Source of the DNA: an uncultured Anaerolineae bacterium
GTDB lineage: Bacteria; Chloroflexota; Anaerolineae; SpSt-600
Reading direction: 5' to 3'
Length of the DNA: 28,396 nucleotides
NCBI GenBank assembly: GCA_964404055.1
Contig: CAYOIS010000002.1
Coordinates: 1-28,396, forward strand
The translations under genes were made by a program, and so were the position numbers. The notes under the pieces are model-generated. The model ran no database searches. It was not told where the DNA came from and saw nothing but the letters and a program-made list of their open reading frames with translations. How positions within the stretch are numbered: the first letter of the stretch is position 1; each line of letters opens with the position of its first letter. Below are positions 7,126 to 24,038 of the stretch, piece by piece.

Positions 7126-7185
7126 ATGGAAAGCCAAAGGAAGAGACTTGATAAACTTGGGGCATGCCTTGTGCGCACTTTTTAA

Positions 7186-7414: not shown

Positions 7415-8593
7415 ATGCTCCCGCAAGTTGCTCGCTGGCAAGAGCATGTTCGGATACTGGCTGAGGTAATCGGCCCCCGCGGCTCTACTACTGAGGGAGA
7501 ACGGCGTGGTTCCGAATACTGCTACGAAGTGTTAGCTGGCTTGGGCTTCAGCCCTCATCTGGAATCTTTATCCAGCGCCCGCTCTATCTACCATCCTCAT
7601 CTTATCGCTGCCCTAATGTTTCTAACTGCTTGGCTTATCTATCCATTGGGAGGACGGGTCACCGCTGCCGTTGCCGTTCTCCTCTCGCTTATTGCCCTCA
7701 CTTCTGAGCTTTTGGAACTCTCTTTTCACGATAACCTTTTGCGCCGGTTAATCCCCAAAGGGCAGAGCCAGAACGTCTTCGCTATTATCCCGCCCAAGGA
7801 GGAGCACCGTCAGGACCTTATCCTCATTGGCCACGTGGATAGCCACCGCACTCCCCTCATCTTCCGCAGCCCCCGCTGGGTTTCCGCTTACACCATCTTC
7901 ACTACCGTTGCCTTTGTCGCTTTCTTGGCCCAGGCTTTTCTTTTCCTTTTGGGGATGATTGCTGGCTGGGAATGGGTCTGGCCCGCTTCAGCTCCTGGTG
8001 CAGTATGTGCTGTCTTGCTCTTGGCCCTTTGCATTCAAGCAGACCTGACCCCATTCAGCCCTGGGGCGAACGACAACGCTACGGGTGTTGGTTTAGTGCT
8101 GAGCTTGGCGGAAGCATTGCGGGATTCCCCCTTGCGCTACACCCGCGTCTGGGCTGTCTGCACAGGCTGTGAGGAAGTCCAGCACTACGGTGCAGCTGCC
8201 TTTTTCGCTCGCCACCGGACGGAGTTCCGCAACCCTGTAGCTTTGGTTTTTGAGATGTTGGGCTGCAGTGGGCCTGCTTGGCTAATCAAGGAAGGCATCG
8301 TCGTTCCCTTCCGGGCCGACAAACGCTTGGCGAAGCTGGCGGAGGAATTAGCTCAGGCTCATCCTGAATGGGGTGCTTTTCCAACCAGCCTTTCCGGTGG
8401 CAATACGGAAATGGCTGATGCGTTGCGGGCTGGCATCCCTGCCATCACTCTGATTGGGATTGGGCGCCGGGGGGATAAACCATACTGGCATCGTATAGAC
8501 GATACGCCCGACAAGATGAACCCAGCGGTTATGGAGCGGGCTTGGGCTTTTGCCTGGGCCTTTATCCAAGCTTTAGACCAACAAGCAGGGTAA
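7415..8593 (+). CDS. M28 family zinc metallopeptidase with transmembrane insertions
   Basis: GHVDS, GANDNATG, GCEEV, FEMLG and YWHRIDDT metal-ligand motifs; four hydrophobic segments. Confidence 0.85.
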   Translation: MLPQVARWQEHVRILAEVIGPRGSTTEGERRGSEYCYEVLAGLGFSPHLESLSSARSIYHPHLIAALMFLTAWLIYPLGGRVTAAVAVLLSLIALTSELLELSFHDNLLRRLIPKGQSQNVFAIIPPKEEHRQDLILIGHVDSHRTPLIFRSPRWVSAYTIFTTVAFVAFLAQAFLFLLGMIAGWEWVWPASAPGAVCAVLLLALCIQADLTPFSPGANDNATGVGLVLSLAEALRDSPLRYTRVWAVCTGCEEVQHYGAAAFFARHRTEFRNPVALVFEMLGCSGPAWLIKEGIVVPFRADKRLAKLAEELAQAHPEWGAFPTSLSGGNTEMADALRAGIPAITLIGIGRRGDKPYWHRIDDTPDKMNPAVMERAWAFAWAFIQALDQQAG

Positions 8594-8687
8594 GAAGTGC
8601 CGTGGGACACAGCTTAGAAGTGTTGGTTGCCTTTGATGCGGAGGTCTTGGGGGAGCCGAGGCCATTGCTGTGTTAGGGTTTAGGGCG

Positions 8688-8923
8688 AAAATCCGAGGAT
8701 GAAGGGGGGTCGGGGCACTTTTGGAGATGCTCGGAATTTTGGCGCGGTATGCCACTACAAGTAGTGGGGCAACAGCTCCAAACTGGCACTTATGGGGTAT
8801 TTGGGCGGCAAAAATCCGAGCATCCTCCCACTTTTTGGGGCCTGTGGAGATGCTCGGAAATGGAAAAGATGGTAGTTTTTGGCCAAATTCTGGTTACAGA
8901 GATGATGTTTAATGGCTTCATAG
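8688..8923 (+). promoter_or_regulatory. CRISPR leader-like sequence, copy A
   Basis: Homologous to 18361-18629 (identical 28-mer GCACTTTTGGAGATGCTCGGAATTTTGG at 8715-8742 and 18388-18415). Two inverted-repeat units at 8692-8735 and 8815-8858; ends at a CRISPR repeat. Confidence 0.75.
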
Positions 8924-8960
8924 GTGAAAGATTGAGCTATCCCCTTCGGGGGATTGAAAC
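8924..8960 (+). CRISPR. Solitary CRISPR repeat A (37 nt)
   Basis: GTGAAAGATTGAGCTATCCCCTTCGGGGGATTGAAAC has the hairpin ATCCCC-TTCG-GGGGAT and a 3' ATTGAAAC handle; the 3' half matches repeats at 18630 and 28063-28238. Confidence 0.75.
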
Positions 8961-9057
8961 ATCAGACCTAACCCCCTGGCCCCCTTCCCTAGCAGGGAAG
9001 GGGGAGAATTCCGGCGGGGGGTCTCCCCGCTCCGGGAAAGGGCCGGGGGAAGGGTTA
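8961..9057. repeat. GC-rich REPIN-like palindromic element A
   Basis: Perfect 11-bp hairpin CCCCCTTCCCT-AGC-AGGGAAGGGGG (8980-9004). Outer arms TAACCCCCTGGCCC and GGGCCGGGGGAAGGGTTA are complementary. Near-identical start to 18667-18710. Confidence 0.7.
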
Positions 9058-9092
9058 AAAGTGTAGATGAGACCTGCAGGAGGATTTGATTT

Positions 9093-11555
9093 ATGGAAGA
9101 GAAAAATGCCGTTTACTTTATCGCTCTTGCCTCTTTGCTTCAGCACATTGGGAGGTTTGCCAAGCTGGCCGGCTTTGAGGAGTTACTCCTGGAGAAGCCT
9201 CTGGAGGAACGAGAGAAGAAAATCCTCACGCTGGCCGACTATCTATCCACGGGCGAATTGCACCTTGCAGAAGGAAAGCAGCCCCGTCAGCTTCGCTCCA
9301 TCTTCTGTTCCCTCACTGCCGATGGCCAACAGGCCCCGGAAGTCCTATACTGGCCCCTGCAACCTCTGCAAATGCGTCAGGATGCCATCTTCCCTCAGAA
9401 AGAAGCGGTCTCTGAGACGATAAAGAAGGCCTATGAAGACCTCGGGGCAAAGTTTAAGGAGCAAGCTGAAAGCTTAAGAAAAACCCAGGGTGAGAACTTG
9501 CCTATCTACTTGGAAAGCCTGCTCCTTCTGCTTCAGCGCTATGCTTGGTGCATCCCTTCTGCCCTTCCGGACGTAAGCCTTTACGATCACGCCCGAATTG
9601 CCGCTGGGTTGGCAGCCTGCCTGTTGGAGCAAGACGAGGCTACGCTGGGGCAAATTCTAAATGCGCTGGAGGGATGGTTTCAGGCCCGCAATACGAACAA
9701 AGCTGCCCCGGCGTCCGAAGTGCTGGAGAAGGCAGAACTTGCCCTGCTGGTCGGTGGGGATATAAGCGGGGTACAGGACTTCATCTATACCATCACAGCA
9801 CGAGGTGCAACGAGCGCACTGCGGGGCCGCTCATTCTACCTCCAACTCCTAACTGAGGCAGTGGCCCGTTACGTCCTCCGGCGGCTTGGTTTGCCCATCA
9901 CTAACCTCATCTACCAAGGTGGCGGAGTCTTCTACTTGCTGGCCCGCCCATCCGACCAGGCTCGCCTTGAAGAAATCCGGCGGGAAGTGAGCTGCATCTT
10001 GCTGGCTCACCACCGGGGCGACCTCTACTTGGCGTTGGCTTTTGTCCCCCTCCACGCTGCTGACTTCTACGGCGGGCGCATCTCCGGAAGGTGGGAAGAG
10101 CTGGGGGAGCGGTTGCAGAAGGCCAAGCAGCGTCGCTTCTCCGAATTGGGGGATGAGCTGGCTTGGCTATTCCAGCCCGAAGGACACGGTGGTAGCGCGG
10201 AGAGAGAATGCCAGGTCTGCGGGCGGGAGCATCCAGGCACTAAAGAAGATAATGGAACCCGCAAATGTCCACCCTGCCTTTCGTACGAAGAGTTAGGGGA
10301 TGATTTGCGGCAGGCCCGTTACCTTTGGATGGCCCAAGAGGACCCGGCCGTGCCGGCTAAGCCCCTGGATGTAACACAAGGCGGCTGGAAAGAAGTCCTC
10401 GCTGCCTTCGGGATGAAAGCTGGTGTAGTGAAAGAACTCAAAGACGTGCCCAATACTATCAGGCCACGTTGGATTTTAGCCCTGAAAGATGAGGCAATGG
10501 CAGACTTGCAGCCTGATCCCCAAACCGTCGTTGGCCGCCGGTTCTTGGTCAATGTGACCCCGATTTTGACCCAAGAGGAATGCAATGAATTCCGGGGAAA
10601 GATAGAAGGCCTCTCTAAGCCGGGAAGCGTTAAGGATTTCTCCGTGATGGAACATCAGTCTAAGGGCATCAAGCGGCTGGGAGTCCTACGGATGGATGTA
10701 GACAACCTGGGCAAGCTCTTTGCCGAGGGATTTGGAGAGAAGGCGAGCTTTTCCCGGGTTGCCGCACTCAGCTTCGCCATCAGCCTATTCTTTGAGGGGT
10801 GGATAGAGGTACTGGCAGAAAGGCTGGGGAAGGATGAGAAAGGCCACGACCGCTTATACTCAATCTACTCCGGTGGGGATGACCTTTTCTTCGTGGGCTC
10901 TTGGGATGCTGTGGTAGAACTGGCGCGAGCGATTCGGGCGGATTTTTCCCGCTTTGTGGCTGGCCATCCGGGCGTCCATACCAGTGCTGGAATCGCCCTG
11001 ATCGGTGCCAAGTACCCCCTTTATCAGGCAGCAGAGGACGCTGGAAGGGCTGAGAGTCAGGCAAAGGGATTGCGCTGGGAAGAGGATGGAAAGAAGCGTG
11101 AGAAGGATGCCATCTCTTTCTTGGGGCAGGCTCTACCGTGGTACCGCTTTGGCATGGAGGACTGCGTAGAGGGTATGGATACCGTTCACAGCTTGGCTCA
11201 CCTTCTGTTCAGGTTAACCTCCCCGCAGGATAAAGGTGGGGAAGGTGTTCCCAGGGCCTTGCTCCAATTGCTGATTCGTCTCCGGGAGCTGCACCAGGAG
11301 ACTGCCGAAAGGCGGGCCCGAGTTGGGGAAGACCGTAATCTGGCCGGGACGGTTCAGACCTACTATGGCCCTTGGATTTGGCGAGGATACTATTTCCTGA
11401 AGAGGATGGCGCGGCGGCTGGAAAAGGAGCAACCGAAAGCCAGTAAAGATGTGGATAAGTTAGCAGATATGCTCCACAAAGGAAACTTCCGGGCAATAGA
11501 GTGGATTGGCTTAGCCGCCCGATGGGCGGAACTGCTGGGAAGGGAGGAAAAATAG
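9093..11555 (+). CDS. cas10: Type III-A Cas10/Csm1; HD motif degenerate, GGDD cyclase motif intact
   Basis: LLQHIGRF at the HD position, SLYDHAR, Palm1 GGDISGVQDFIY...LRGRSFYLQLL, Zn finger CQVC...CPPC, Palm2 RMDVDNLG...YSGGDDLFFVG. Confidence 0.96.
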   Translation: MEEKNAVYFIALASLLQHIGRFAKLAGFEELLLEKPLEEREKKILTLADYLSTGELHLAEGKQPRQLRSIFCSLTADGQQAPEVLYWPLQPLQMRQDAIFPQKEAVSETIKKAYEDLGAKFKEQAESLRKTQGENLPIYLESLLLLLQRYAWCIPSALPDVSLYDHARIAAGLAACLLEQDEATLGQILNALEGWFQARNTNKAAPASEVLEKAELALLVGGDISGVQDFIYTITARGATSALRGRSFYLQLLTEAVARYVLRRLGLPITNLIYQGGGVFYLLARPSDQARLEEIRREVSCILLAHHRGDLYLALAFVPLHAADFYGGRISGRWEELGERLQKAKQRRFSELGDELAWLFQPEGHGGSAERECQVCGREHPGTKEDNGTRKCPPCLSYEELGDDLRQARYLWMAQEDPAVPAKPLDVTQGGWKEVLAAFGMKAGVVKELKDVPNTIRPRWILALKDEAMADLQPDPQTVVGRRFLVNVTPILTQEECNEFRGKIEGLSKPGSVKDFSVMEHQSKGIKRLGVLRMDVDNLGKLFAEGFGEKASFSRVAALSFAISLFFEGWIEVLAERLGKDEKGHDRLYSIYSGGDDLFFVGSWDAVVELARAIRADFSRFVAGHPGVHTSAGIALIGAKYPLYQAAEDAGRAESQAKGLRWEEDGKKREKDAISFLGQALPWYRFGMEDCVEGMDTVHSLAHLLFRLTSPQDKGGEGVPRALLQLLIRLRELHQETAERRARVGEDRNLAGTVQTYYGPWIWRGYYFLKRMARRLEKEQPKASKDVDKLADMLHKGNFRAIEWIGLAARWAELLGREEK

Positions 11556-11661
11556 GAAATCCGCACTCTGGATGCAAAAGCAAGGGCTGTAAATCCGGGG
11601 TGCTTAAGTCTAAGCCTGGTAGTTTACGGCCAGGCCTCAAAATTATAACAGGAGGTGACAA

Positions 11662-12120
11662 ATGACACAGCAACAGAAAGGAACAACTTTCAATCCTCCC
11701 ACCGATCAAGACCTGTGCACCATCATCACTGACCCCAACGGCACGCAGAAACTGGTGGAGTGGGCTGACCGGCTGGGAAAGCACCTGAAGGATATAGGCC
11801 TTACTTCTCATCAGATCCGCACCCTTTTCGGTGAAGTCCGCCTGATTCAGGCGGAGTGGAACACTAACCGTCAGCGGGCATTCCGCCGTCTGGTCCTACT
11901 CAAACCCAAGATGGCCTATCGGGCCCGCAAAGAGCGCGGCAAAGCCGTTGGGGAACTGGTCAAAGTCCTGGACCCGGCACTGGATTATGTGATTAAGGCT
12001 AAACCCCGTCCAAAGGACCAACCGCCGGGGACTGGGGACAACCAAGATGACAATTTCCAGCGGTTTGTGGAATTCCTTGAGGCCATCCTGGCTTACCACA
12101 AAGCTTACGGCGGAGAGTAA
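11662..12120 (+). CDS. csm2: Type III-A small subunit Csm2
   Basis: LTSHQIRTLFGEV, LLKPKMAYRARK, FVEFLEAILAYHK; lies between cas10 and csm3. Confidence 0.92.
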   Translation: MTQQQKGTTFNPPTDQDLCTIITDPNGTQKLVEWADRLGKHLKDIGLTSHQIRTLFGEVRLIQAEWNTNRQRAFRRLVLLKPKMAYRARKERGKAVGELVKVLDPALDYVIKAKPRPKDQPPGTGDNQDDNFQRFVEFLEAILAYHKAYGGE

Positions 12121-12138
12121 TCCCTGAGGAGGTGAACC

Positions 12139-12963
12139 ATGCCGAATAAAACCATCCAACTTAAAGGCCGCATTTTCTTGACCTTTAATTTACGAGCTTG
12201 CACAGGTTTGCACATTGGCGGTTCAGAGACTGGAATTGAAATAGGCGGCATAGACAAAGTTGTCATCCGTGACCCCATCACTAACCGTCCGTACATTCCC
12301 GGCTCTTCCCTCAAAGGCAAGGTTCGCTCCCTCCTGGAGAAGTACCGCGGCCTCCCCCTGAACCGCAAAATTGGGCAAACCTTCATCCACAGTTGCGAAA
12401 AGCCGGAAGAATACCAAGGTTGCGACATCTGCCAAGTCTTCGGCGTCCCAGGGGAAATGGAATTCGCCACCCCTACTCGCCTCGTTGTCCGGGACGTCCA
12501 CCTGACGGAGGAAAGCGCTCGCATCCTGACCGAGCAAGCTCGTACCGACCTTCCATATACCGAAGTCAAGACGGAAGTAGCCATTGACCGGGTCACCTCT
12601 GCCGCTAACCCCCGCCGCATGGAGCGGGTCCCTGCCGGAGCTGTCTTCGGCCCTGCTGAACTGGTTTACTCCATCTATGAAGGAAGCGATGGTGAAGACA
12701 ACATCGCCGACCCTGGGAAAGATGTGGAGAGGTTCCGTACCTTGGTGGAAGGGCTTCAGCTCCTGGAAGATGACTACTTGGGCGGCTCGGGCTCCCGCGG
12801 CTCAGGCAAAGTGAAACTGGAAGGCATAACCGTTTCCGTCCGGCCCGGTGAAAAGTATCTGGAAGAGCCCCAAAAGGTGGGAGAATACAAAGACCTGGCT
12901 GCTCTTGTGGCTGAGCTGCCGATTCTGCTCCAAGAGTTAAAGCAGGCTTTTGGACTGGCGTAA
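12139..12963 (+). CDS. csm3: Type III-A Cas7-family backbone RNase Csm3
   Basis: LHIGG...IGGIDKVVIRDP (catalytic Asp position retained), PYIPGSSLKGKVRSLLE, EVKTEVAIDR, YLGGSGSRGSG. Confidence 0.95.
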   Translation: MPNKTIQLKGRIFLTFNLRACTGLHIGGSETGIEIGGIDKVVIRDPITNRPYIPGSSLKGKVRSLLEKYRGLPLNRKIGQTFIHSCEKPEEYQGCDICQVFGVPGEMEFATPTRLVVRDVHLTEESARILTEQARTDLPYTEVKTEVAIDRVTSAANPRRMERVPAGAVFGPAELVYSIYEGSDGEDNIADPGKDVERFRTLVEGLQLLEDDYLGGSGSRGSGKVKLEGITVSVRPGEKYLEEPQKVGEYKDLAALVAELPILLQELKQAFGLA

Positions 12964-12976
12964 GAGGAGGCGGGCG

Positions 12977-14128
12977 ATGGCTAAATTAACCGTCTACCGC
13001 CTCGCCTTTCATGCTGGCTTCCACGTCGGTATCCGGGGCGTTAACTTGGAGGAAAGCGGAACGCATATACCTTCAGACACCCTCTTCGCTGCCCTTTTGG
13101 ATGCTTTCATACGCAGCGGCGGTGATGCGGAGGGGTTCGCAAAGCCGTTCAAGGAAAGAACCCCGCCTTTCCTCCTTACCTCTGCTTTCCCCTTTGCCGG
13201 GGGCGTCCGCTTCTTCCCAATGCCAGTCCCTCTGGACCGCTGGTTTTCCCCCGAAACGCTCCGGGAGCGCTCCAAGGACCTGAGGAAAGTGAAGTTTCTC
13301 TCCGAGGGGCTTTTCCAGCTGATGCTGAAGGGGGAGCAAATGGACGATTGGCTCTTCCCGAAAGGAGAAGCTGAGCCAGAACGCGGTGTTGCCCTGCAAG
13401 ACGGGGTTTTCTGGCTTAGTGCGGACGAAGTCAAGCAACTGCCAGAATCTATGTGGATAAACCCTCGCACTCATCAGCCAATCCCTTTGCGTGCACTGCG
13501 GCGCCACTCAGTCTTCGCCTTACAGCAGGTGCCACGTGTTACCCTGGACCGAGTTTCCTCGGCCTCAAACATCTTTCATGCCGGGCGGGTATCCTTTAGC
13601 CTCGGCTGCGGGCTCTGGTTCGGTGTCCATTGGCTCAACCCCGACATGCAGGTGAGCGCAACCGGCCCTTCTTTCCGCAATGCTTTCTTAAGGGCCTTGG
13701 CAACCCTGGCCGATGACGGTCTGGGTGGGGAACGCACCGTCGGCTATGGTGGATTCTCCTGGACCGAGGAGCCAGATAGCCTTTCTCTGCCTGACCCGAA
13801 GGGAGAAAGCCTCATGTGGCTGCTATCCCGCTATCACCCACGTCAGGACGAGCTTCCGGTGGCATTGACTGAATCCCCCGGATACCGTTTGACCGCCGTG
13901 GCGGGATGGCTCCGCTCCTGGCAAGGCCCATCTCAGCGACGCCAACGCCTCTGGTTAGTGGCTGAAGGAAGTCTCATCTGCTCCGTTGGCTCCGGCCCCT
14001 GGGGCGATATTACTGACGTCCGCCCTCGCTACCTCAACCCCGCTGGCGACCTCCCACACCCAGTCTGGCGCTACGGTTTCGCCTTAGGAGCCGGCGTAGC
14101 AGAGGATTCACAACGCCAGGAGGTGTGA
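12977..14128 (+). CDS. csm4: Type III-A Cas5-family subunit Csm4
   Basis: HIPSDTLFAALL, FLLTSAFPF, RVTLDRVS, G-rich loop GLGGERTVGYG. Start set to the ATG at 12977 after a GAGGAGG RBS. Confidence 0.92.
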   Translation: MAKLTVYRLAFHAGFHVGIRGVNLEESGTHIPSDTLFAALLDAFIRSGGDAEGFAKPFKERTPPFLLTSAFPFAGGVRFFPMPVPLDRWFSPETLRERSKDLRKVKFLSEGLFQLMLKGEQMDDWLFPKGEAEPERGVALQDGVFWLSADEVKQLPESMWINPRTHQPIPLRALRRHSVFALQQVPRVTLDRVSSASNIFHAGRVSFSLGCGLWFGVHWLNPDMQVSATGPSFRNAFLRALATLADDGLGGERTVGYGGFSWTEEPDSLSLPDPKGESLMWLLSRYHPRQDELPVALTESPGYRLTAVAGWLRSWQGPSQRRQRLWLVAEGSLICSVGSGPWGDITDVRPRYLNPAGDLPHPVWRYGFALGAGVAEDSQRQEV

Positions 14129-14129
14129 A

Positions 14130-15257
14130 ATGGCCGACTACATCCTTTACAAAGCTAAGGCTACGCTCCTAACCCCACTCCACATCGGCACTGGGCGGAA
14201 CCTGCTCCTCTCTTACGACTACGCTGTTTATGGTGGGCGGACTTGGCGGCTGAACGAGGACGCTATTTTAGAGGCCCAGAACGTGGATGACCCAAGGGTC
14301 ATGGCTTTGCTGATGAAGACCCCGCCTGCTCAATTGTTGAAGCCAGGGGATTTCCAAGAGGGAAGCCCATTCTTCCGGTACGTCATCCGTGGTGTACCTC
14401 GCTCTCAAGCTGAAGGAGCCCAGCTGCAGGAGCAATGGAAAGACCCATATGACCGTCCGTACCTCCCTGGCACCAGCCTCAAAGGTGCGCTGCGAACTGC
14501 ACTGGCCTGGCATGCTTGGGAAATCCTGAAGCTCCGCCCAGAGCGGTCTCGCCTCAACCCCAATCCCCGCTTCGCTGCTCAGGGCTATGAGCGCCAAATT
14601 TTCGGCCCTGACCCCAACCACGACCTCCTGCGCGCCTTGCACGTGGGAGACAGCGAACCGGTCGGAGCAGACAGGCTGATTTTGATTAACGTGCGGGTCA
14701 TAAACAAGACAGGCACAATGGGACCACCAATTGAGCTTGAAGCAGTTGCTCCGGAGACAGTTTTCCACTTCACTGTCAAACTGGACCTGACGCTCTTCTC
14801 CGACTGGGCCAAGCGGCACCGGCTGGAGATGCATGGGGAAGACTGGCTGCGGAACCTGCCAGCGGTGGTCAACCGCCACACTGCACAACGGTTAGAAGAG
14901 GAGCGGGCGTGGTTCAACGGTGTCCCCGGTGCGGAACGGATTCTGCAATTCTACAAGGAGCTGAAAGTTCCCGCTCGTGGCTTCCTCTTGCAGGTTGGCT
15001 GGGGCACCGGCTGGGACGACAAAACTTTCGGCAGTCACCTGCGGGCTGACCCCGACTTCTTGGAGGGAATCCTGCGACCTCCCAAGGCAGGAGGCTACGG
15101 CATCGCTCGGGGCCGCCGCCAGCCTGGAGACCCATTCCCTAAAAGCCGCCGGGTTATAGTCCAAATTCATCGTGCCCCGGATGGCCGCATCATCCAAGAG
15201 CGCCCTGTCGCCCCTCTGGGGTGGATGTGGGTAGAATGGGAGGAGGCGGCCTTGTAG
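14130..15257 (+). CDS. csm5: Type III-A RAMP subunit Csm5
   Basis: LLTPLHIGTG, PYLPGTSLKGALRTAL, LRALHVGDS, LQVGWGTGW, PLGW. Confidence 0.92.
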   Translation: MADYILYKAKATLLTPLHIGTGRNLLLSYDYAVYGGRTWRLNEDAILEAQNVDDPRVMALLMKTPPAQLLKPGDFQEGSPFFRYVIRGVPRSQAEGAQLQEQWKDPYDRPYLPGTSLKGALRTALAWHAWEILKLRPERSRLNPNPRFAAQGYERQIFGPDPNHDLLRALHVGDSEPVGADRLILINVRVINKTGTMGPPIELEAVAPETVFHFTVKLDLTLFSDWAKRHRLEMHGEDWLRNLPAVVNRHTAQRLEEERAWFNGVPGAERILQFYKELKVPARGFLLQVGWGTGWDDKTFGSHLRADPDFLEGILRPPKAGGYGIARGRRQPGDPFPKSRRVIVQIHRAPDGRIIQERPVAPLGWMWVEWEEAAL

Positions 15258-15424
15258 CTTTCCAATCCGAGAAATGCTGAGCTTGCTACGGAAGGCCTTT
15301 CACTGTGTCACTTCAGAGTGCTGCCGGGGAGAATAAAGTTCGCCAACAGGCCCTACTCAATATCAAGAGCGATTCCTTCCTTGCCTTAAAAGGCGGGTTC
15401 TGGCGCAGAAAGTAGGAGGAAAGC

Positions 15425-16312
15425 TTGGGTAAATTAATGGTTTGCTTAATTGGCGAACAGCCTATTCCCAACCTCTTGCCGCTGCGCCACCAGCCACCGG
15501 ATATAGCTTTGTTAGTGCACACTGACCGGACGAAGGGAGTGGCTCAGCGGCTCAAGAAATTGCTGGAACCCAAGGTTAAAGTTTACTTGCTTCAGACAGA
15601 CCCTTACGATGTTCAGAAAATCCATGAAGACCTTCAGAAATTCCTTGCTGAGAATATTGAGGAAGGGACGGAACTGGTGTTCAACCTGACCGGAGGTACT
15701 AAGACAATGGTTCTGGCTGCGTACGAGTTGGCTCGGGAACACAATGCCCCTTTCCTCTACCTTCAAAGCGAAGGTAAGCGCTCCGTCCTTTACCGATACC
15801 GGTTTGAGGCGAAGGAGCCCTTTTATGAAGACAAGGAAACAATACCAGGCGTCATCACCATTGAGGATTACCTGAAGGCTTACGTGGACAACTACAATGT
15901 TACCGAGCCGAGGAACCCCTTTGAGAAAGAAATTGGGAAAGCCTTGGAAGGAGCAGTGGATGAAGTGGTTAGTGGGGTAACTTTAGCTGCAGCGCTGGAG
16001 GTGGACTTGGTCGTTCGGAAAGGAAACCAGGTGGGCGTGATAGAGGCCAAAACAGGCGCCAGGGCAAGGAGTAAAGAAGGCCTGGACCAATTGAATGCTG
16101 TATGCGAGCAAAGATACTTGGGCACATACACCCATAAAATCCTGGTCGTAAACCAGCAATGGAGTCAAACTCTAACTAACCTCCGCGAACTGGCTAACGC
16201 CTGGCGCGTAACCGTAATTGAATTGCCCTCATTTACTGAAGAGCACCCTTTTCTGTCCGAAGAAGATAAAGAAGTCCTTCGGAGCGAAGTTATCAAAGTC
16301 CTAAGTGGATAA
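15425..16312 (+). CDS. CARF + PD-(D/E)xK nuclease effector (Card1/Can2, DUF1887-like)
   Basis: N-terminal CARF (VCLIGEQPIPNLL...FNLTGGTKTM) and C-terminal restriction-endonuclease-like motif EVDLVV...VIEAKTG. TTG start with GGAGG RBS. Confidence 0.82.
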   Translation: MGKLMVCLIGEQPIPNLLPLRHQPPDIALLVHTDRTKGVAQRLKKLLEPKVKVYLLQTDPYDVQKIHEDLQKFLAENIEEGTELVFNLTGGTKTMVLAAYELAREHNAPFLYLQSEGKRSVLYRYRFEAKEPFYEDKETIPGVITIEDYLKAYVDNYNVTEPRNPFEKEIGKALEGAVDEVVSGVTLAAALEVDLVVRKGNQVGVIEAKTGARARSKEGLDQLNAVCEQRYLGTYTHKILVVNQQWSQTLTNLRELANAWRVTVIELPSFTEEHPFLSEEDKEVLRSEVIKVLSG

Positions 16313-16321
16313 GGAGGCCCT

Positions 16322-16705
16322 ATGATCGTCCTCAACTTTTCTCACCCCCTCACCGAAGAGCAATTAGCCCAGATAGAAGCGCTCACAGGCCAGAAAGTAG
16401 AGCGGGTCATAGAAGTGCCAACTCAACTGGACCCTGAAGCACCGTTCGCCCCGCAGGTGATGGAGCTTGTGGAGAAGGTGGGGCTTTCTCCCAAGGAATG
16501 GCAAACTTTGCCCATCCTCATTAACCCCCCATCCCTGAACGCCATTGCTGTTATCCTCTTGGCTGAACTCCATGGGCGGATGGGCTACTTCCCCACCATC
16601 ATCCGGCTTCGTCCTGTTCCGAACGCTATCCCTCCACGCTTTGAAGTGGCCGAATTAATCAACCTGCAAGCCGTGCGAGACAAAGCAAGGGAGCAGAGGA
16701 GATGA
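16322..16705 (+). CDS. csx15: CRISPR-associated protein Csx15-like
   Basis: MIVLNFSHPLT..Q...IE..TG, ILINPPSL, LAELHGRMGYFP recalled as Csx15 signatures; located among type III ancillary genes. Confidence 0.75.
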   Translation: MIVLNFSHPLTEEQLAQIEALTGQKVERVIEVPTQLDPEAPFAPQVMELVEKVGLSPKEWQTLPILINPPSLNAIAVILLAELHGRMGYFPTIIRLRPVPNAIPPRFEVAELINLQAVRDKAREQRR

Positions 16706-17457
16706 GGGAGCGAAAGGAACTCCTCAACTTTTTGAGAGCCTTCCTTCAGAGCGCCGAGTCCTCGCCAGAACTGCTGGCTGCCTTCATCCTGGGACTAATC
16801 GTAGCGAACACCTTAGCCCAGTTAGTTTACGAGCTGCTAATGGCGCCCAAAACCTGGTCTACCCTGTGGCGGCCTGCTTTGGCAATCTTTGTGATGACGG
16901 GTGTGGCTTATTTGCTCTACCGACGTGACCGGCAGCGTGCTCGCACCATGCATGTTGTCGTAGATGAGAACCGATTGGCTCCGCCTCACCCTGGCATAAT
17001 CTGGCTCTTCGGGCCAGGCCGGTTTGACCATCTGCTGTTCGCCCTTGAGCACCACCAGAAAGGAGGCGGGGCATCCCACTGCTGGTTAGTGATGCAGAAC
17101 ACAGAACCAGTGCAGAGGACATATAGCCAACTTATCCAGCAGCTGAATGCCAAGGGGCTGAAGACCCAACTGCATCCCATTTACATCCCCCAACTGGAAG
17201 CTGGAGATGCCTACCAGGCCGTCCGGAGGGTCTTTGAAGAGGAAGCGCCTAAGGTGGGCCTGAAGCCAGAAGAGGTTATAGCCGATATCACCGGTGGCCT
17301 TAAGCCTTTGACTGCAGGCATGATACTGGCTGCCATCACTCTTGACCGCGAGTTGGAATACGTGGAGAGCGAAAGGGACCCTCAAGGAGAGCCAATTCCT
17401 GGTACACTACGTGTTGTGCTAATAGACCTGAATTTCTATGTTACACGAAAGGGGTGA
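16702..17457 (+). CDS. Transmembrane CARF effector (Cam1-like architecture)
   Basis: Two N-terminal TM helices (LLAAFILGLIVANTLAQLVYELL; LWRPALAIFVMTGVAYLLY), then a CARF-like Rossmann domain with IADITGGLKPLTAGMILAA. Confidence 0.78.
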   Translation: MRERKELLNFLRAFLQSAESSPELLAAFILGLIVANTLAQLVYELLMAPKTWSTLWRPALAIFVMTGVAYLLYRRDRQRARTMHVVVDENRLAPPHPGIIWLFGPGRFDHLLFALEHHQKGGGASHCWLVMQNTEPVQRTYSQLIQQLNAKGLKTQLHPIYIPQLEAGDAYQAVRRVFEEEAPKVGLKPEEVIADITGGLKPLTAGMILAAITLDRELEYVESERDPQGEPIPGTLRVVLIDLNFYVTRKG

Positions 17458-17458
17458 C

Positions 17459-18340
17459 ATGCTTTTAGCAGCAGTAATCTTCCTTTCCCCTTTATACCCA
17501 GTAACCCTCCCCGCTGACCTGGGGCGGGCGGTCCATGCCTGGTTCTTAGGGCAGGTGCAAAGGGTTGACCCCGCCCTGGCCGAACGTCTCCATGAGCCCA
17601 ACCGCCCTCGCCCTTTCACCCTCTCCTCTCTCCGGGGTGTAGGGAAAACCACAGGGGGAATGGTAGCCCTTACCCCGGAGCAGGATTACTGGCTGCGGGT
17701 GACCAGCATGGAAGCGACCATCTCCCGCTGCTTGCTGGAGCATATCCTCCCGGCCCTGCCTGGGGAAGAGATAGAGCTGGCGGGGGCAACTTTCAAGATT
17801 AAGGGAGCAACCTACGACCCAGCAGAGCATCCTTGGGCTGGGCAGACAACTTACGAAGCACTGGTTAAAGAACACTTGCTTGGGACAGGGCAATTGGAGC
17901 GCACGCTGACCCTCCAGTTTGCCTCGCCTACCACCTTCCGGCGGACAGGGATGACCTCAAGCCTGACCGATGGGGAGGGGCAAGCCTACCGGGTAGTGGG
18001 GCACAATTTCCTGCTGCCTTTGCCTGGGCTGGTCTTTGACAGTTACCTTCAGCGATGGAATGCCTTTGCCCCAATAGCACTTCCGCTGGAGGTGAAGCGG
18101 TTTGCGGAGGAATGTGTGGCAATAAGCCGATACCGGCTCCAAACCGTGCTGGTGGAGTTTGGGGAGGTCCGTGAGCTTGGATTTGTGGGGACATGCCAGT
18201 TCACTGCGCTGGTAGCAGACCCCTACTGGTTGCGTATCTTGCACCTTCTGGCGGCCTTTGCCTTTTACGCTGGCACAGGCCACCACACCGCCCGTGGGAT
18301 GGGGCAGACAAGGGAATTGACAATAACCAGCGAGAAATGA
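17459..18340 (+). CDS. cas6: CRISPR precursor-processing endoribonuclease Cas6
   Basis: LHEPNRPRPFTLS, FASPTTFR, C-terminal G-rich loop FAFYAGTGHHTARGMGQ. Start set to the ATG at 17459, right after the upstream stop codon. Confidence 0.92.
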   Translation: MLLAAVIFLSPLYPVTLPADLGRAVHAWFLGQVQRVDPALAERLHEPNRPRPFTLSSLRGVGKTTGGMVALTPEQDYWLRVTSMEATISRCLLEHILPALPGEEIELAGATFKIKGATYDPAEHPWAGQTTYEALVKEHLLGTGQLERTLTLQFASPTTFRRTGMTSSLTDGEGQAYRVVGHNFLLPLPGLVFDSYLQRWNAFAPIALPLEVKRFAEECVAISRYRLQTVLVEFGEVRELGFVGTCQFTALVADPYWLRILHLLAAFAFYAGTGHHTARGMGQTRELTITSEK

Positions 18341-18360
18341 TAAAATAAGTGTGGAAGGGA

Positions 18361-18629
18361 AGAATCCGAGCATGAAAGGGGGTAAGGGCACTTTTGGAGA
18401 TGCTCGGAATTTTGGCCAAGTGTGCCCCTACAATTAGTGGTGCAAAGGTTCTAAATCGGCACCGGTAGTGTATAATGGAGGCAAAAATCCGAGCATCCCC
18501 CCACTTTTTAAGGCCTGTGGAGATGCTCGGAAGTGAAAAAGATGGTAGTTTTTGACCAATTTTTGGTTACAAAGATGATGTTTGATGGCCTCTTGGGTGA
18601 AAAATTGAGCACCTTAACAATCTTGAGGA
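18361..18629 (+). promoter_or_regulatory. CRISPR leader-like sequence, copy B (most complete)
   Basis: Inverted-repeat units at 18365-18408 and 18488-18531; TATAAT at 18471-18476; starts ~20 nt after the cas6 stop and ends at a repeat. Confidence 0.78.
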
Positions 18630-18666
18630 GTAGAAATGAATAGTGCTCCCTTCGGGGGATTGAAAC
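18630..18666 (+). CRISPR. Solitary CRISPR repeat B (37 nt)
   Basis: GTAGAAATGAATAGTGCTCCCTTCGGGGGATTGAAAC; its 5' end matches repeat C1 (28063) and it carries the ATTGAAAC handle. Confidence 0.78.
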
Positions 18667-18776
18667 ATTAGACCTAACCCCCGGCCCCCTTCCCTTGCAG
18701 AGAAGGGGGGATTCTGGTGGGGCGGGTTTTCCCCTCCCCGTTTCGGGGAGTGGCCGGGGGAGGGGTTGATTGAAAC
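18667..18776. repeat. GC-rich REPIN-like palindromic element B, followed by a second GATTGAAAC
   Basis: ATTAGACCTAACCCCCGGCCCCCTTCCCT-TGC-AGAGAAGGGGG. Outer arms CCCCCGGCC and GGCCGGGGG pair perfectly. GATTGAAAC at 18768-18776. Confidence 0.7.
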
Positions 18777-18796
18777 TTTAAAGTGAGGGTGTGGGG

Positions 18797-21151
18797 ATGA
18801 TGCGAAGTCTACGGTGGTTAGCACTTCTTCTGCTTTTACTCTTGCTGGCTGTAGGCCAAGGAGCAAAAGCCCAACAACCTGCCCCAGCCGAGAATGTTTC
18901 GGTAGTTCTGGTTGTTGATAGCTCCGGAAGCATGAAGACCAATGACCCTACAGACCTCCGCTTCACGGCCGCAAAGCTCTTCATCAGCCTCTTAGATTTG
19001 AAAGATTCAGTGGGCATAGTAAACTTCGCCAGCAGGAGCCACGTCCTTGTAGATTTGGTGAGGATTGAAGCCGAGAGGGAAAAAGAGCCTTTGATGAAGA
19101 AGCTTGAAGGCATTGAAGCTAAGGGAAATACCCATATGCTCGCTGCGCTGAAAGATGCACGCACCCTCCTCTCTAAGGATACTTCCCCGAACGACAAATT
19201 CGTCGTCTTCCTCACCGATGGCGAACCGCACCCCGATAACTGGGATAAGATGAGCGATGATGAGAAACGGAATTACATAGAGGAAACCTTGAAAGTGGTT
19301 GGTGAGATAGACTGGCCTGTCCTCTCCATCGCCTTTACGAAAGAGGCCTATGTCCCGTTCCTTGAAGATGTGAGCAGAATAAGCAAGGGAAAGCTTTTCT
19401 ATGCCGCTACCCCAAGAGAGCTTCCGGAGGTCTATGAGGAGGTCTTCGGCCACCTCAAGGACAGGACAATATTCGGCCCCGGATTCGTGGACGCTCCGAC
19501 CTCGGTCAAGTTTACGATTGACCCCTTTGTCAAGAAAGTAAGCTTCGTAATCGTCAAGCCGGAATCGGTAACAGTGAAAATCCTCACCCCTGGTGAAAGA
19601 ACTCTTGACCTTAGCGACCCGAAGGTGGTTCGCTTCTTAACCCCTCGCTTTGAGACCGTGACAATTGAGGATCCGGCCCCTGGGACTTGGACAGTGGAGC
19701 TGAGTGGCTCTGGGGAGGCGCATGTTAAGGCCATCGTCAAATCCAAGCTCCGCATCCTAAGCCCCTCACCTCTATCCCCTCACCCAAAGGGCAAACCAAT
19801 GCTCGTGGCGGCCAGCCTGAACGAGCTTCAACCAGATGGTTCATACAAACGTTTAGTCGGAGATCGCATCTTCTTGGCTGAGCTGACCACCCCCAAAGGT
19901 GAACGGCTATCCCTTACCCTCTACGATGACGGGACCCATGGAGACAAAATGATGGGGGATGGCATCTTTTCCACACTTTATAACCCTGAGCTTGAAGGCC
20001 CCTTCAACATCCTCTTCCAAACCTGGGAAGGACCCATCCCTGTCCGCTCGGAGAGGACAATATGGGTTTTGCCATTCCCCGAATTAATCGTTGATTCTCC
20101 GAAGGGGGAGGAATACGAACTTAAGGAGCCCTCCTTAGCCATCAAGGCCCATTTGGAATTAGAGGGGAAACCTTTCACATTGGAGGGGGCCAAGGTCATA
20201 GCAAAGGTGCGAAGGCCCGATGGAAGCGTGGAGACATTGGCCTTGCTCGAGAGGCATGGCTTTTACGAGGCCGCTTTCATCCCTACCGAAGGGAAGCATG
20301 AAGTCACTTTTACCCTGGAAGGGATTTATAAGAAGACCCCCTTCACCGATTCCAAGGGTGTATCCTTCGGAGTTAAGTTCTTTATCCCTACCATCTTCAT
20401 TCGCCCCGGCGAGGTGAACCTGGGGCGTATTGATGGCCTCAAGGAGGGGAAGGTAATAACCTTCACCGTGGAATCCTCCTCTCCCCATGAGGAGCTCCTG
20501 ACGGCAAGTGTGCCCGAGTTTGAGAATTTAAGGGTCTCTTTAGAGCCGAACCGAATCCCACCGAGTGGGAAGGTGCAAGTTAAGCTCACCATCTCGGCGG
20601 TGCCCCCCTTTAAGCTCAGCCTTTTCAAAGCGATGGACTGTAAGGGAAGCATCGTCTTCTCCTCACGGGCGGGGGTGGTTATCTCACCTGCCGAGGTCCA
20701 CCTCAGGTTTCACATACCTTCCCTTTGGGAGATTTATCGGAAATGGGTATTCTTAGCAGTTTTGCTCCTCTTGAGCGTCATCTTTGGGGGAAGAAAAGTG
20801 AAACAAATTATGAAGGGGCCCCTTCTCACTGGCACCCTCCTCTACTGGACGGAAGCCACTAAGGGTTCGCCAACCATGGTAAGTTTAGATGAGCTTGAGA
20901 AAAAGGCGATAACCATTGGCCAGGACCCTAAATGTGATATATGCTTGCCTGATCCGAAGCTCAACCCTAAACATGCCCAACTGAGGGCAAGGAAAGAGGA
21001 GGGGGAGGTTGTGGTAGAGCTAAACCCCTTGGAGGATTCCGAAATATACATTGGCTTTCGCCGCTTGACCACCTCCATAACGCTGCGCCATAAGGACGAA
21101 TTTCGGATGGGTGATTACACCTTTAAGTATCTGAAAGAAGAAGCCTTTTAA
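18797..21151 (+). CDS. Single-pass surface protein: signal peptide, vWA, beta-sandwich repeats, TM helix, FHA-like domain
   Basis: Signal peptide ending AKA; MIDAS DSSGSM...T...FLTDGEP; LYDDGTHGD...GDG motif; TM WVFLAVLLLLSVIFGG; C-terminal ITIGQDPKCDICL...KHAQL. Alternative starts at 18791 and 18800. Confidence 0.82.
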   Translation: MMRSLRWLALLLLLLLLAVGQGAKAQQPAPAENVSVVLVVDSSGSMKTNDPTDLRFTAAKLFISLLDLKDSVGIVNFASRSHVLVDLVRIEAEREKEPLMKKLEGIEAKGNTHMLAALKDARTLLSKDTSPNDKFVVFLTDGEPHPDNWDKMSDDEKRNYIEETLKVVGEIDWPVLSIAFTKEAYVPFLEDVSRISKGKLFYAATPRELPEVYEEVFGHLKDRTIFGPGFVDAPTSVKFTIDPFVKKVSFVIVKPESVTVKILTPGERTLDLSDPKVVRFLTPRFETVTIEDPAPGTWTVELSGSGEAHVKAIVKSKLRILSPSPLSPHPKGKPMLVAASLNELQPDGSYKRLVGDRIFLAELTTPKGERLSLTLYDDGTHGDKMMGDGIFSTLYNPELEGPFNILFQTWEGPIPVRSERTIWVLPFPELIVDSPKGEEYELKEPSLAIKAHLELEGKPFTLEGAKVIAKVRRPDGSVETLALLERHGFYEAAFIPTEGKHEVTFTLEGIYKKTPFTDSKGVSFGVKFFIPTIFIRPGEVNLGRIDGLKEGKVITFTVESSSPHEELLTASVPEFENLRVSLEPNRIPPSGKVQVKLTISAVPPFKLSLFKAMDCKGSIVFSSRAGVVISPAEVHLRFHIPSLWEIYRKWVFLAVLLLLSVIFGGRKVKQIMKGPLLTGTLLYWTEATKGSPTMVSLDELEKKAITIGQDPKCDICLPDPKLNPKHAQLRARKEEGEVVVELNPLEDSEIYIGFRRLTTSITLRHKDEFRMGDYTFKYLKEEAF

Positions 21152-21173
21152 CGCTTGCTAAAGGAGGTGGAAA

Positions 21174-24029
21174 ATGGAAAGGGTGCAAGAATTTTACTTC
21201 TCCCCTACCCTCATCATTGGCCTTGGGGGGACGGGGCAAAAAGTGGTTAGGAGGGTAAAGGGAAGGCTGAGGGAGGCCTTCGGTGATGTCCCAATCATAC
21301 GCTACCTGGTTATAGACACGGACAGCACGGCCAATCAGCCAGGTGAGGAGCCTTTAGAGGACTACGAGCGAGTGGAAATGAGAGGATTTGACCTCAACCA
21401 GGTCGTGGAAAATCTGTCGAGGTTTCCTTCCATTCAGAAGTGGTGGCCTGCCCCTGGACTTAAGCCAGGCTTCATCCGTGGCGGCGCTCCCCAGCAGATG
21501 CGATGTGCAGGTAGGTTGGCCCTCTTCAGCAAATATTCTGACTTCATCCCAAAGCTTAGGGAAGCTGCTAGCGCATTGGCGGAGATTGAGAACTATACAA
21601 AGACCGAAGAAATGAGCACCCCTGAAAAAAGATACATCGTTGAAAGGGGAGAAGAAGGGGTGCCCATCATGGCGAAGGTCTTTATCATACTATCCCTCTG
21701 TGGGGGGACGGGGAGCGGCATCTTACTTGATGTCGCCTATCTCTGCCGTTACCTCCTTCAGGATCTCCACCCAAGGATTAACGTCATGGCCGTTTTGCCT
21801 ACCGCGCTGGATACGATACCCACAATAAGAAGAACTACTATCATCAGGGATAAGAACAGGGCCAACACCTATGCTTGCCTTAAAGAGATAGACCATTTCC
21901 TTTCCAACCCTCGCTGGGTCTGCTTATACCCTGATGGGGCAAGCGTTGAGGTTAGTGCTCCTCCCTTTGACTTCATGTACATGGTGGATTTGCATAACCA
22001 AAAGGGGGAAAGGCTGAACTCCATAGATGACATCTGTGAGATGATCGCCAGCGCCATCTTTCTTAGCACTGGGTTGCCCACAGCGAGGGAAATAGAGAGG
22101 CAGGATACTATCTCTCATATCACTCTTGCTCAAGTTCAGGGTAAGTTTAGAGCTTACAGTTCTGTGGCAATCACTTCCCTCATCTTTCCAAAAGAGAGAA
22201 TCTTGGACTATTGTTCAGCAAAGATGGCTGAGGCCTTGATCAGGGAGGGTTTCTTGCAAGGGAGCGAAAGCAGCAGCGTTAAGATAAAGAAGAGCGATGT
22301 TGAACAAGCCGTCTCCGCCTTCCTCGGCGAGGCACACCTTAGAGCCGAGGATGTCATGTCCGAGTTGCGAAGCGGTAGGCAGGTGTTCATCACCAAGAAA
22401 TCCGAGATTCTCAGGAGCCAGGACGCAGCAAACGCCCTCCGGCTGCTCACGGAGCAGGAGGAAGACAATAGGAACCAAAGGCAAGAACAGGCAAACTTGA
22501 TCAAGGAGAAGGCTGCATCGCTCCTTGAAGAAGCAAAGGAGGCCTTAGAACGCAGGGTGCTGGACGAGGTAAAGGAGAGGGGCTTACACTTTGCTGCTCT
22601 TTTCTTGGAAACGCTGACTCGTGAGCCTCAGCCTGGGGAAGTTGGCGTAACCACCACATCGCTATTAGGCTTGCGGCGTAGAATAGAGTCGGAAGGAGTC
22701 CCAGAGGAGGCCCTGAAAAAAGCTGAGGGGAGCTACACCAAGGCGAAAAGCCAGCTCAAAGCATTTGAAGGGAATACTTTCTGGAAGGTGATAAGGTTTA
22801 TCTCAAAGTCCTGGTGGCAGCGAAAATTGAAGGGGCACATCTCAAATTGCCTCACGAACATGGAGGAGGCTAACGGGAGGGCCATTGACATTGAGGCCCA
22901 GAGGAGGGCATTGGATCTCTACAACGCCCTGGTAATGGAGGCGAAGCGCCTTCTATCAAGCCTGGCACAGGTCCGCCAGAAGCTGGTGATTGCTGCAGAA
23001 AAACTCTCAGCCGAGGCTGAAGATAAGCTAAAGCCTCCCTCGGCCATGGAAGGGGTATACGAGCTGGCCACAGAGGTAGTTGATGCCGATTACATCATGC
23101 GATACTATGAAGAGAAAGCAATCTCCATTGACTTACCCACCGCCTTCAGGGGATTTGCCCAGAGCCTCCCGGATACGAGGGTGGCACAGTTGGAGATGAG
23201 GAGTGAGAAAGATTATATCAACCGGCTAAAGGAATATGCTGCTGGCTACTTCCGGGAAGGCCTGGAAAGGATACGCTTGCTCGACCTCTTAAGCGAAAGA
23301 GCACCTGAAGAAATAGAAAGGCAATTCCAGAAGCTCATTAGTCACTGCGAGCCATTCTGTCGGTATAATAAGGCTGGCCTTGGCGAAGAGCCAGAACCTA
23401 TTTTTGTGTCCATCATCGGCGTTGAGGATAAGGGTGACCTTAGGATTCCGGAGCGCTACCGCAACGAGGCCATATCCACCGGCCTCAGGCACCGCATTGA
23501 TGCCCTTAGGGCTTTTCATGGCATCCCCGCTTTCCTAATAAGTGATATGAGAGAATACAAGGGCTGTTACGAGAGGGAGAAAAGGAGAGGCGTAGACCCA
23601 TTGCACATTGGCCAAGGATGGGATAGGTTTGAAGACATTTTCCCAGAGCTTAAGAGGGAGGCCAGGGACATCTTCGCCCTCGCTTTGGCCTTTGACTTCA
23701 TCGTTCAGATAGGGGAGTGGTACTACTTTGACCCCGACCGGAAGTACAAGGAAAAGGGAATACGATTACCCGTAGAGAATAGGCTCGCTCAAGGGAGGGA
23801 GAAAGCAGAGGAAGCTTTCATTGAAAGGGACGATATAGTGAGTAAGGCAATGGAGCTTATTGAAGAGGAAATCACCAGGAAAGGAAATGAGGCCATCATA
23901 AGCTTCTTGGAGCAAAAGATAGAGGAAAACGAAGGAAAAATCAGGGAACGTCCCACCAGCGACTTGCGGGAGTTTTGGGAAAGGGATATTGAAGCCTTCA
24001 AGCGCAAACTAAAAGCTTTGCAAGGGTAA
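21174..24029 (+). CDS. Tubulin/FtsZ-like GTPase (FtsZl1/Tubulin_2 type) with long helical C-terminus
   Basis: LIIGLGGTG, YLVIDTD, AGRLAL, signature SLCGGTGSG, ANTYACLKEID; ~600 aa helical/coiled-coil tail; AAGGAGG RBS. Confidence 0.85.
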   Translation: MERVQEFYFSPTLIIGLGGTGQKVVRRVKGRLREAFGDVPIIRYLVIDTDSTANQPGEEPLEDYERVEMRGFDLNQVVENLSRFPSIQKWWPAPGLKPGFIRGGAPQQMRCAGRLALFSKYSDFIPKLREAASALAEIENYTKTEEMSTPEKRYIVERGEEGVPIMAKVFIILSLCGGTGSGILLDVAYLCRYLLQDLHPRINVMAVLPTALDTIPTIRRTTIIRDKNRANTYACLKEIDHFLSNPRWVCLYPDGASVEVSAPPFDFMYMVDLHNQKGERLNSIDDICEMIASAIFLSTGLPTAREIERQDTISHITLAQVQGKFRAYSSVAITSLIFPKERILDYCSAKMAEALIREGFLQGSESSSVKIKKSDVEQAVSAFLGEAHLRAEDVMSELRSGRQVFITKKSEILRSQDAANALRLLTEQEEDNRNQRQEQANLIKEKAASLLEEAKEALERRVLDEVKERGLHFAALFLETLTREPQPGEVGVTTTSLLGLRRRIESEGVPEEALKKAEGSYTKAKSQLKAFEGNTFWKVIRFISKSWWQRKLKGHISNCLTNMEEANGRAIDIEAQRRALDLYNALVMEAKRLLSSLAQVRQKLVIAAEKLSAEAEDKLKPPSAMEGVYELATEVVDADYIMRYYEEKAISIDLPTAFRGFAQSLPDTRVAQLEMRSEKDYINRLKEYAAGYFREGLERIRLLDLLSERAPEEIERQFQKLISHCEPFCRYNKAGLGEEPEPIFVSIIGVEDKGDLRIPERYRNEAISTGLRHRIDALRAFHGIPAFLISDMREYKGCYEREKRRGVDPLHIGQGWDRFEDIFPELKREARDIFALALAFDFIVQIGEWYYFDPDRKYKEKGIRLPVENRLAQGREKAEEAFIERDDIVSKAMELIEEEITRKGNEAIISFLEQKIEENEGKIRERPTSDLREFWERDIEAFKRKLKALQG

Positions 24030-24038
24030 AGGGTTTTT

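Follow-up and report, generated by a model that had tools for sequence, protein, structure and literature searches.

We analyzed a 28,396-nt stretch of DNA (hereafter the window), the entire contig C2 (CAYOIS010000002.1) of a 1.99-Mb, 249-contig metagenome-assembled genome (MAG) of an uncultured Anaerolineae bacterium, which is 95.6% complete. The window carries a type III-A (Csm) CRISPR locus, in which two units of ~400 bp, located at 8673-9056 and 18348-18767, lie directly ahead of cas10 and of a gene encoding a vWA protein, respectively. Each unit, or cassette, consists of a leader, one repeat, and a GC-rich palindromic element. Comparison with relatives makes it likely that both cassettes are CRISPR arrays reduced to a leader and a single repeat, probably transcribed through by the downstream operons, and not purpose-built regulators. 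The case corrects a tempting over-reading, as a leader with a single repeat in front of an operon is not necessarily a regulator, and a single genus shows the arrays of a type III locus shrinking, being copied, and being invaded by a dispersed repeat.

The two cassettes and the arrays of relatives

Self-BLAST aligns 8690-9056 with 18363-18767 at 76% identity (E 1.4e-85), and a repeat finder links 8675-9034 with 18348-18740 through a 263-nt pair and a 93-nt pair. Both cassettes are co-oriented with the genes that follow, and the distance from the end of the GC-rich element to the ATG is 36 nt for cas10 (9093) and 29 nt for the vWA gene (18797). Each cassette contains exactly one repeat unit on the forward strand. 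Solo repeat 1 (8924-8960) has a hairpin at 8939-8954 and the 8-nt handle ATTGAAAC at 8953-8960, with a predicted Cas6 cut at 8952/8953; solo repeat 2 (18630-18666) is full length, with the handle ATTGAAAC at 18659-18666 and a predicted cut at 18658/18659. The preliminary description of this DNA had reported the paired units, their orientation, and the lack of an ordinary spacer array after either, and had inferred these two cut sites. The observations stand, and the cut sites are placed correctly, as the hairpin and the ATTGAAAC tail are present in both cassettes. A cas6 gene lies in the operon.

After the GC-rich element of either cassette we found no second repeat or spacer, save a 9-nt repeat-end remnant in cassette 2. 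A CRISPR array has at least two direct repeats with a unique spacer, which applies to the locus at 28063-28238 and to neither cassette. Both cassettes instead have the properties of a single repeat unit (SRU), with one repeat that is near-identical to the array repeat, has no recognizable repeat downstream, and lies in or beside a cas locus. The repeat of cassette 1 is repeat-derived only in its 3' 21-23 nt, which comprise the hairpin and the handle, and the 5' half of this unit matches the end of the cassette-2 leader; cassette 1 looks as though a deletion had removed the 36 nt that separated a repeat-like leader end from the repeat. The tail of cassette 2 (18768-18796, forward strand) begins with the 9-nt remnant of a terminal repeat end (18768-18776), followed by the 20-nt 5' untranslated region (UTR) of the vWA gene with its ribosome-binding site.

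The same sites were compared in the congeners G004 and G007, in the relative G003, in the metagenome contigs L027 and L028 (whose tubulin protein is 89% identical), and in five more distant Anaerolineae. Between cas6 and the vWA gene, where the window has one repeat, G004 has 10 repeat units, and the relative known from the two metagenome contigs has 7 repeats and 6 spacers in both L027 and L028. Ahead of cas10, G004 has 3 repeats. In G007, whose Cas10 is 87% identical, the stop codon of the M28 peptidase gene is followed by ~50 nt and then by the same cas10 ribosome-binding site, and the cassette is absent. Upstream of cas10, a repeat-like handle was found neither in G003 nor in the five more distant Anaerolineae with a related cas10. 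The cassette before cas10 is a variable insertion of ~475 bp and not a conserved part of the operon. Relatives thus carry either full arrays or nothing at these sites, and full arrays in relatives are what the preliminary description had itself named as grounds for rejecting the role that it proposed for the cassettes.

Leader copy 1 (8673-8923, forward strand) contains two inverted-repeat modules and is a paralogue of 18348-18629 and 27843-28008. Copy 2 (18348-18629, forward strand) is defined by the repeat finder, self-BLAST, and the relatives, and copy 3 (27843-28015, forward strand), in which the second module is truncated, is fused to a repeat-end remnant at 28004-28015. The repeat finder starts the three copies at 8684, 18357, and 27843, with identities of 73-82%, and the first ~165 nt of the cassettes recur at 27843-28008 (leader 3 against leader 1, E 6e-27 in self-BLAST). 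Leader 1 is 76-78% identical to the leaders ahead of true arrays in G004 and 81% identical to a leader in G007 that directly follows cas2. In the window, a remnant of a cas2 3' end (8594-8672, forward strand) begins right after the M28 peptidase stop codon and is joined to leader 1; ~40 nt of it resemble the final cas2 codons of G007 at ~80% identity (by eye), and the list of open reading frames contains no cas2 upstream of leader 1 in the window. Homologous leaders stand ahead of ordinary arrays, with 3 and 10 repeats in G004 and 7 repeats in L027/L028, and ahead of the window's own mini-array. From its place upstream of arrays and downstream of cas2, we take the cassette leader to be a genuine CRISPR leader.

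The mini-array (28063-28238, forward strand) follows leader copy 3 and contains three repeats with degenerate handles and two spacers. It is followed by a terminator-like hairpin and T run (28265-28312, stem 28291-28303, forward strand), and such a hairpin occurs only here, after the last array. An Rfam scan of the whole window with E values up to 1 returned zero families; the leader and the GC-rich element are therefore not known RNA families.

A fourth, orphan unit occurs elsewhere in the MAG, on contig C6:8943-9203 (L004 1501-1761), and comprises the 3' half of the leader, a repeat, a degenerate repeat, and a GC-rich element. It is flanked by housekeeping genes, one of the phosphodiesterase family and one for a CO-dehydrogenase flavoprotein, well away from any cas gene, and heads no co-oriented gene since both neighbours are on the opposite strand. 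The two arrays of G004 have a terminal spacer in common. This shared spacer and the orphan unit on C6 show that the units are copied around. Two side observations in G004 concern duplication as well. Two neighbouring array spacers are identical (L023 10798-10916), which points to duplication of a repeat-spacer unit within the array. The flank upstream of the cas10 leader (L023 1-500) is paralogous, at 85% identity, to the flank following the transglutaminase-like gene (L025 5510-5812), so ~170 nt of upstream flank were duplicated along with the leader.

The likely history is that the genus keeps leader-array units at three places of its type III-A locus, namely ahead of cas10, between cas6 and the vWA-tubulin operon, and after that operon, and that the cassettes occupy the first two. 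The spacers were probably lost via recombination between repeats, and in cassette 1 the recombination partners would be the repeat and the repeat-like leader end. The GC-rich element, a separate genome-wide repeat, would have landed at array ends and been copied along. In the MAG (95.6% complete) we found no Cas1, its sole cas2 is part of another locus, on contig C47, and there are no adaptation genes near the cassettes; the lack of Cas1 and the placement of cas2 fit arrays that are no longer growing. A naive search for further CRISPR arrays in the MAG returned tRNA clusters and coding repeats only.

A dispersed GC-rich element at the array ends

The GC-rich element, which the preliminary description had treated as a palindrome belonging to the cassette, turns out to be an unrelated dispersed element. 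Profile search and BLAST place copy 1 at 8965-9056 and copy 2 at 18671-18767, both on the forward strand. The element is ~95 nt in size (85-105 nt), and its consensus fold has inverted, pairing ends and two internal hairpins. Four copies are present in its own genome, including one standing alone on contig C65 and the one in the orphan unit on C6, and the same searches returned at least 16 copies on 13 contigs of G004. The element was also found in four other Anaerolineae families (G019, G021, G025, and G034). The copies are many, intergenic, and on both strands. In L027 and L028 the element is missing and the terminal repeat directly abuts the vWA 5' UTR, and in G004 the element interrupts arrays. 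This marks it as an invader of arrays, as opposed to a component designed into the cassette.

With its many dispersed intergenic copies, inverted termini, and internal hairpins, the element resembles repetitive extragenic palindromic elements (REP/REPIN) or elements like miniature inverted-repeat transposable elements (MITEs). No RAYT transposase of the kind linked to REP/REPIN turned up with the GC-rich element, and no search aimed at RAYT was made. Covariation supports 3 of the 24 pairs of the consensus fold, and this near-absence is more in keeping with a young, spreading repeat than with an old structured RNA. A role as terminator was rejected as well: there is no T run, the scan gave no terminator-like site, and the genes begin 29-36 nt after the element. 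We also considered a transposon-like entry with a 9-bp target duplication, in view of GATTGAAAC flanking the element of cassette 2. This was set aside as unproven because a longer repeat remnant is present there in G004 and other copies have no duplication; a repeat remnant would account for the 9-nt duplicate of cassette 2 equally well.

In G034, on contig C51 (L009 1500-2051), two copies of the element bracket a gene for a 129-aa protein of the DUF559 nuclease fold, and in G021 (L010) the element and the 5' end of a DUF559 gene are tandemly duplicated. The DUF559 gene looks like an autonomous partner of the GC-rich element. A possible degenerate copy, below the threshold of the profile search, lies at 7330-7414 of the window, just ahead of the M28 peptidase start.

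Transcription, Cas6 cleavage, and competing explanations

Promoters and terminators were called by consensus scans (sigma-70-like). Between either solo repeat and its start codon, the scan gave no sigma-70-like promoter or terminator-like site, so the solo repeats probably lie within the transcripts of cas10 and of the vWA operon. A promoter-like site, TTGACA-18-TAAAAT (18317-18346, forward strand; 11/12 with TG, a consensus match only), is located in the 3' end of cas6 and abuts leader 2, and in G004 it is conserved as TTGACA-18-TAAGAT. In L027 and L028, the vWA start codon is exactly 20 nt past the intact terminal repeat, and the same 20-nt vWA UTR follows a repeat remnant in the window and in G004, where the remnant is longer. 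Given this spacing, the array and the vWA operon are probably co-transcribed as one unit across the genus.

Starting from a promoter at the leader or upstream of it, for which 18317-18346 is the best candidate, transcription would run through the repeat and the GC-rich element into cas10 and the vWA operon. Cas6 cutting leaves an 8-nt 5' handle. Read-through transcription followed by Cas6 cutting at both predicted sites is plausible, as Cas6 probably still cuts the intact hairpins. The cut would free the mRNAs from the leader RNA, and each would carry a 5'-OH, the 8-nt handle, and a 5' end that is strongly folded. A regulatory effect, if any, would then be a by-product of the co-transcription of array and operon, and not the work of a dedicated cassette. 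The remaining interest lies in the accessory operon: as it starts 20 nt past a CRISPR repeat, its mRNA is probably freed from the precursor CRISPR RNA (pre-crRNA) by Cas6.

Several points weigh against this reading of the cassettes as reduced arrays. The hairpin and the handle are perfect in both solo repeats, and 37 of the 38 nt around them are identical, compared with 76% overall; selection, and not recent copying alone, could lie behind such high identity. In L027/L028 the 20 nt from repeat to vWA start are kept, and G004 and the window retain the UTR, a hint that the coupling is of importance. All promoter calls are matches to a consensus, and for cassette 1 there was none. Finally, the MAG is incomplete and cas1 might be unassembled.

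The cassettes might instead be portable promoter or operator modules, in which a regulator, perhaps a CARF protein of the locus, binds the inverted repeats of the leader, so that cas10, the vWA operon, and the array are co-controlled and the repeat and Cas6 are irrelevant. Both inverted-repeat modules are kept in the three leader copies, with changes on both arms that keep complementarity; compared with shuffled controls, the leader, taken as RNA or as DNA, has the better fold (z -3.1); and the strong promoter-like site that abuts leader 2 is the one conserved in G004. However, Pfam and NCBIfam detected no DNA-binding domain in the CARF proteins, the scan gave no promoter-like site at leaders 1 and 3, and G007 would have to express cas10 without the leader. 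The conservation is equally expected of a leader that serves spacer integration, and we consider such modules unlikely.

The preliminary description had proposed dedicated regulators: Cas6 would cut the 5' UTRs, and the tagged mRNAs would be loaded into Csm and trimmed, which would subject the cas operon to feedback and place the vWA operon under CRISPR-dependent control. The intact hairpins and handles, the cas6 gene in the operon, and the lack of a promoter-like site between repeat and ATG are compatible with such devices, and this much of the proposal holds. Furthermore, with the vWA start 20 nt past the terminal repeat, a Csm complex assembled on the tag would cover the vWA ribosome-binding site. 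The absence of the cassette before cas10 in G007 and G003 and the varying arrays of the other relatives speak against a dedicated device, as does the fourth unit on C6 that heads no co-oriented gene. In addition, every terminal repeat yields a tagged trailer RNA, so that such an RNA is nothing special to these cassettes.

The loading and feedback steps find no support in the sequences that follow the handles. These belong to the dispersed GC-rich element and are predicted to be buried in stable GC-rich hairpins, which would make them a poor Csm substrate, and the would-be guide has the same sense as its own mRNA. Compared with the genome, the 40 nt downstream of each handle have no full-length complementary match and match only each other and other copies of the GC-rich element; the best inverted match is 18 nt long, on contig C65. 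Hairpin burial, sense orientation, and the lack of a complementary match are three results that argue against a guide or feedback role. When the spacers of the mini-array were used as self-targeting queries, nothing beyond copies of the GC-rich element was returned. The structure described earlier is real, the mechanism proposed for it is unproven, and we regard dedicated regulation as quite improbable.

A very improbable alternative is that the metagenome assembler collapsed true multi-spacer arrays at both sites to one repeat, as might be suspected in a 249-contig MAG, given that CRISPR arrays are often mis-assembled and that relatives have arrays at the same sites, but contig L038 of the independent JGI metagenome 3300022546 covers 17756-28396 at 99.72% identity, with 30 mismatches and zero gaps, and carries the identical solo repeat, GC-rich element, and mini-array, the cassette-1 junction joins a diverged leader to the 3' part of a repeat with no long shared word that could collapse the graph, and arrays of 7 and 10 copies of the same repeat were assembled in relatives.

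The reduced-array reading is also compatible with what is described for type III systems. Single repeat units and mini-arrays occur near 10-14% of type III loci, without positional conservation or targets, and were judged to be probably degraded repeats (Shmakov et al. 2023, bioRxiv 10.1101/2023.03.03.530964, PMC10120712). Like these SRUs, the solo repeats here stand alone, are near-identical to the array repeat, are intergenic at the edge of a cas operon, are not conserved in position, and have no target that we could find. Unlike them, they keep a full leader of ~250-280 nt, have a co-oriented gene ~130 nt downstream, and occupy sites at which congeners have true arrays.

Regulatory crRNA-like RNAs include CreR/CreA of types I and V-A, and the scaRNA and long tracrRNA of type II (PMC10120712; bioRxiv 10.1101/2024.10.29.618823). 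The cassettes resemble them as a source of repeat-derived RNA in a cas locus proposed to tune the expression of cas or cargo genes. Regulatory crRNA-like RNAs contain two degenerate repeats and a spacer partly complementary to a promoter, and repress by DNA binding, whereas each cassette has a single repeat without a spacer or a complementary target, and the effector is of type III. Regulatory mini-arrays have two repeat-like sequences around a 20-60-nt spacer, and here a single repeat is followed by a ~95-nt dispersed element; the search with the 40 nt after each handle revealed no partial complementarity to a cas or cargo promoter of the kind that such spacers have. Their position is kept among close loci, and here the unit is absent in G007, no repeat-like handle was seen in G003, and the arrays vary in G004 and L027/L028.

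In Methanocaldococcus jannaschii, a truncated long repeat (leader) and a single short repeat occur as copies scattered in the genome. These belong to another repeat family and, to our knowledge, have not been linked to downstream operons. RNA anti-CRISPRs (Racrs) are solitary repeat units of phages (Nature 2023, PMC10651486). Similarly to Racrs, a solitary repeat could occupy Cas6 or other Cas proteins without guiding immunity; unlike Racrs, which are encoded by viruses or plasmids, the cassettes sit within a cas locus of the host itself and carry a host leader. Cas6/Csy4 sites are said to have been used as synthetic mRNA insulators, in work attributed to Qi et al. in 2012, where cutting of a hairpin in the 5' UTR reportedly frees the mRNA from upstream RNA. 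Those insulators are engineered, whereas the cassettes are natural and their insulator-like role is putative.

The vWA-tubulin operon and the surrounding genes

The four-gene operon that follows cassette 2 (18797-27508, forward strand) encodes a vWA-FHA protein, a Tubulin_2 protein, a second Tubulin_2-like protein, and a transglutaminase-like protein (Pfam). Although it was previously regarded as a non-cas operon, homologues of the tubulin-like protein (35-39% identity) adjoin genes for a type III effector, RT-Cas1-Cas2 (RT, reverse transcriptase), WYL, or Cas6, and the vWA/tubulin module is CRISPR-linked in five of the six contexts sampled outside the genus. Among the CRISPR-associated genes listed by Altae-Tran et al. 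2023 are vWA systems with tubulin-domain proteins. On this comparison of gene neighbourhoods, the operon is best described as a recurrent CRISPR-linked accessory module and not as unrelated cargo. The vWA/Tubulin_2/Tubulin_2-like module was observed on the unrelated metagenome contigs L030, L032, L034, L036, and L037, where its neighbours are type III effector genes and a block of RNase H, RemA-like, RT, Cas1, and Cas2 genes; a gene with sigma-70 region 4 precedes the module in three of those contexts.

A further proposal concerns this operon alone. The vWA-tubulin operon of this genus may have no promoter of its own, its expression being hard-wired to pre-crRNA transcription; the Cas6 cut would make the mRNA 5' end, Csm on the handle-tagged end would cover the ribosome-binding site, and the level of free Csm or Cas6 could gate the module. 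We regard this as rather unlikely. If true, a type III system would here possess a natural post-transcriptional switch that depends on Cas6/Csm, and with it a new way to control accessory genes.

The type III-A operon lies on the forward strand at 9093-18340 and consists of cas10 (9093-11555), csm2 (11662-12120), csm3 (12139-12963), csm4 (12950-14128), csm5 (14130-15257), a CARF protein gene (15425-16312), csx15 (16322-16705), a second CARF protein gene (16702-17457), and cas6 (17438-18340), as assigned with Pfam and NCBIfam. The type is supported by NCBIfam equivalog matches above cut-off for Csm1, Csm3, Csm4, and Csm5, and Csm2 was recognized by Pfam. All cas open reading frames of the window are intact. 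The closest named relative of its Cas10 comes from an uncultured Anaerolineae bacterium. Cas10 keeps the GGDD cyclase motif at residue 594. Its N-terminus (window 9093-9200) has LLQHIGRF where more distant relatives have LLHDIGKF, and the Cas10 proteins of G004 and G007 are similar to it. The Cas10 of this clade may have lost the HD nuclease and may rely on cyclic-oligoadenylate signalling.

Contig C47:1-1000 contains a second CRISPR-Cas locus that starts at the contig edge, with a cas2 fragment followed by a gene that is possibly cas6-like (by eye); no array of this system was found among the assembled contigs. The region upstream of the CRISPR island in the window consists of housekeeping genes, the last of which encodes the M28 peptidase (7415-8593, stop codon 8591-8593). 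A block of ~60 nt, similar by eye at 7050-7130 and 27600-27680, has a GC-rich hairpin followed by GATTTCA-TCGGCAT. One copy is located upstream of the M28 peptidase gene and the other after the transglutaminase-like gene, so that the two roughly bracket the entire CRISPR island.

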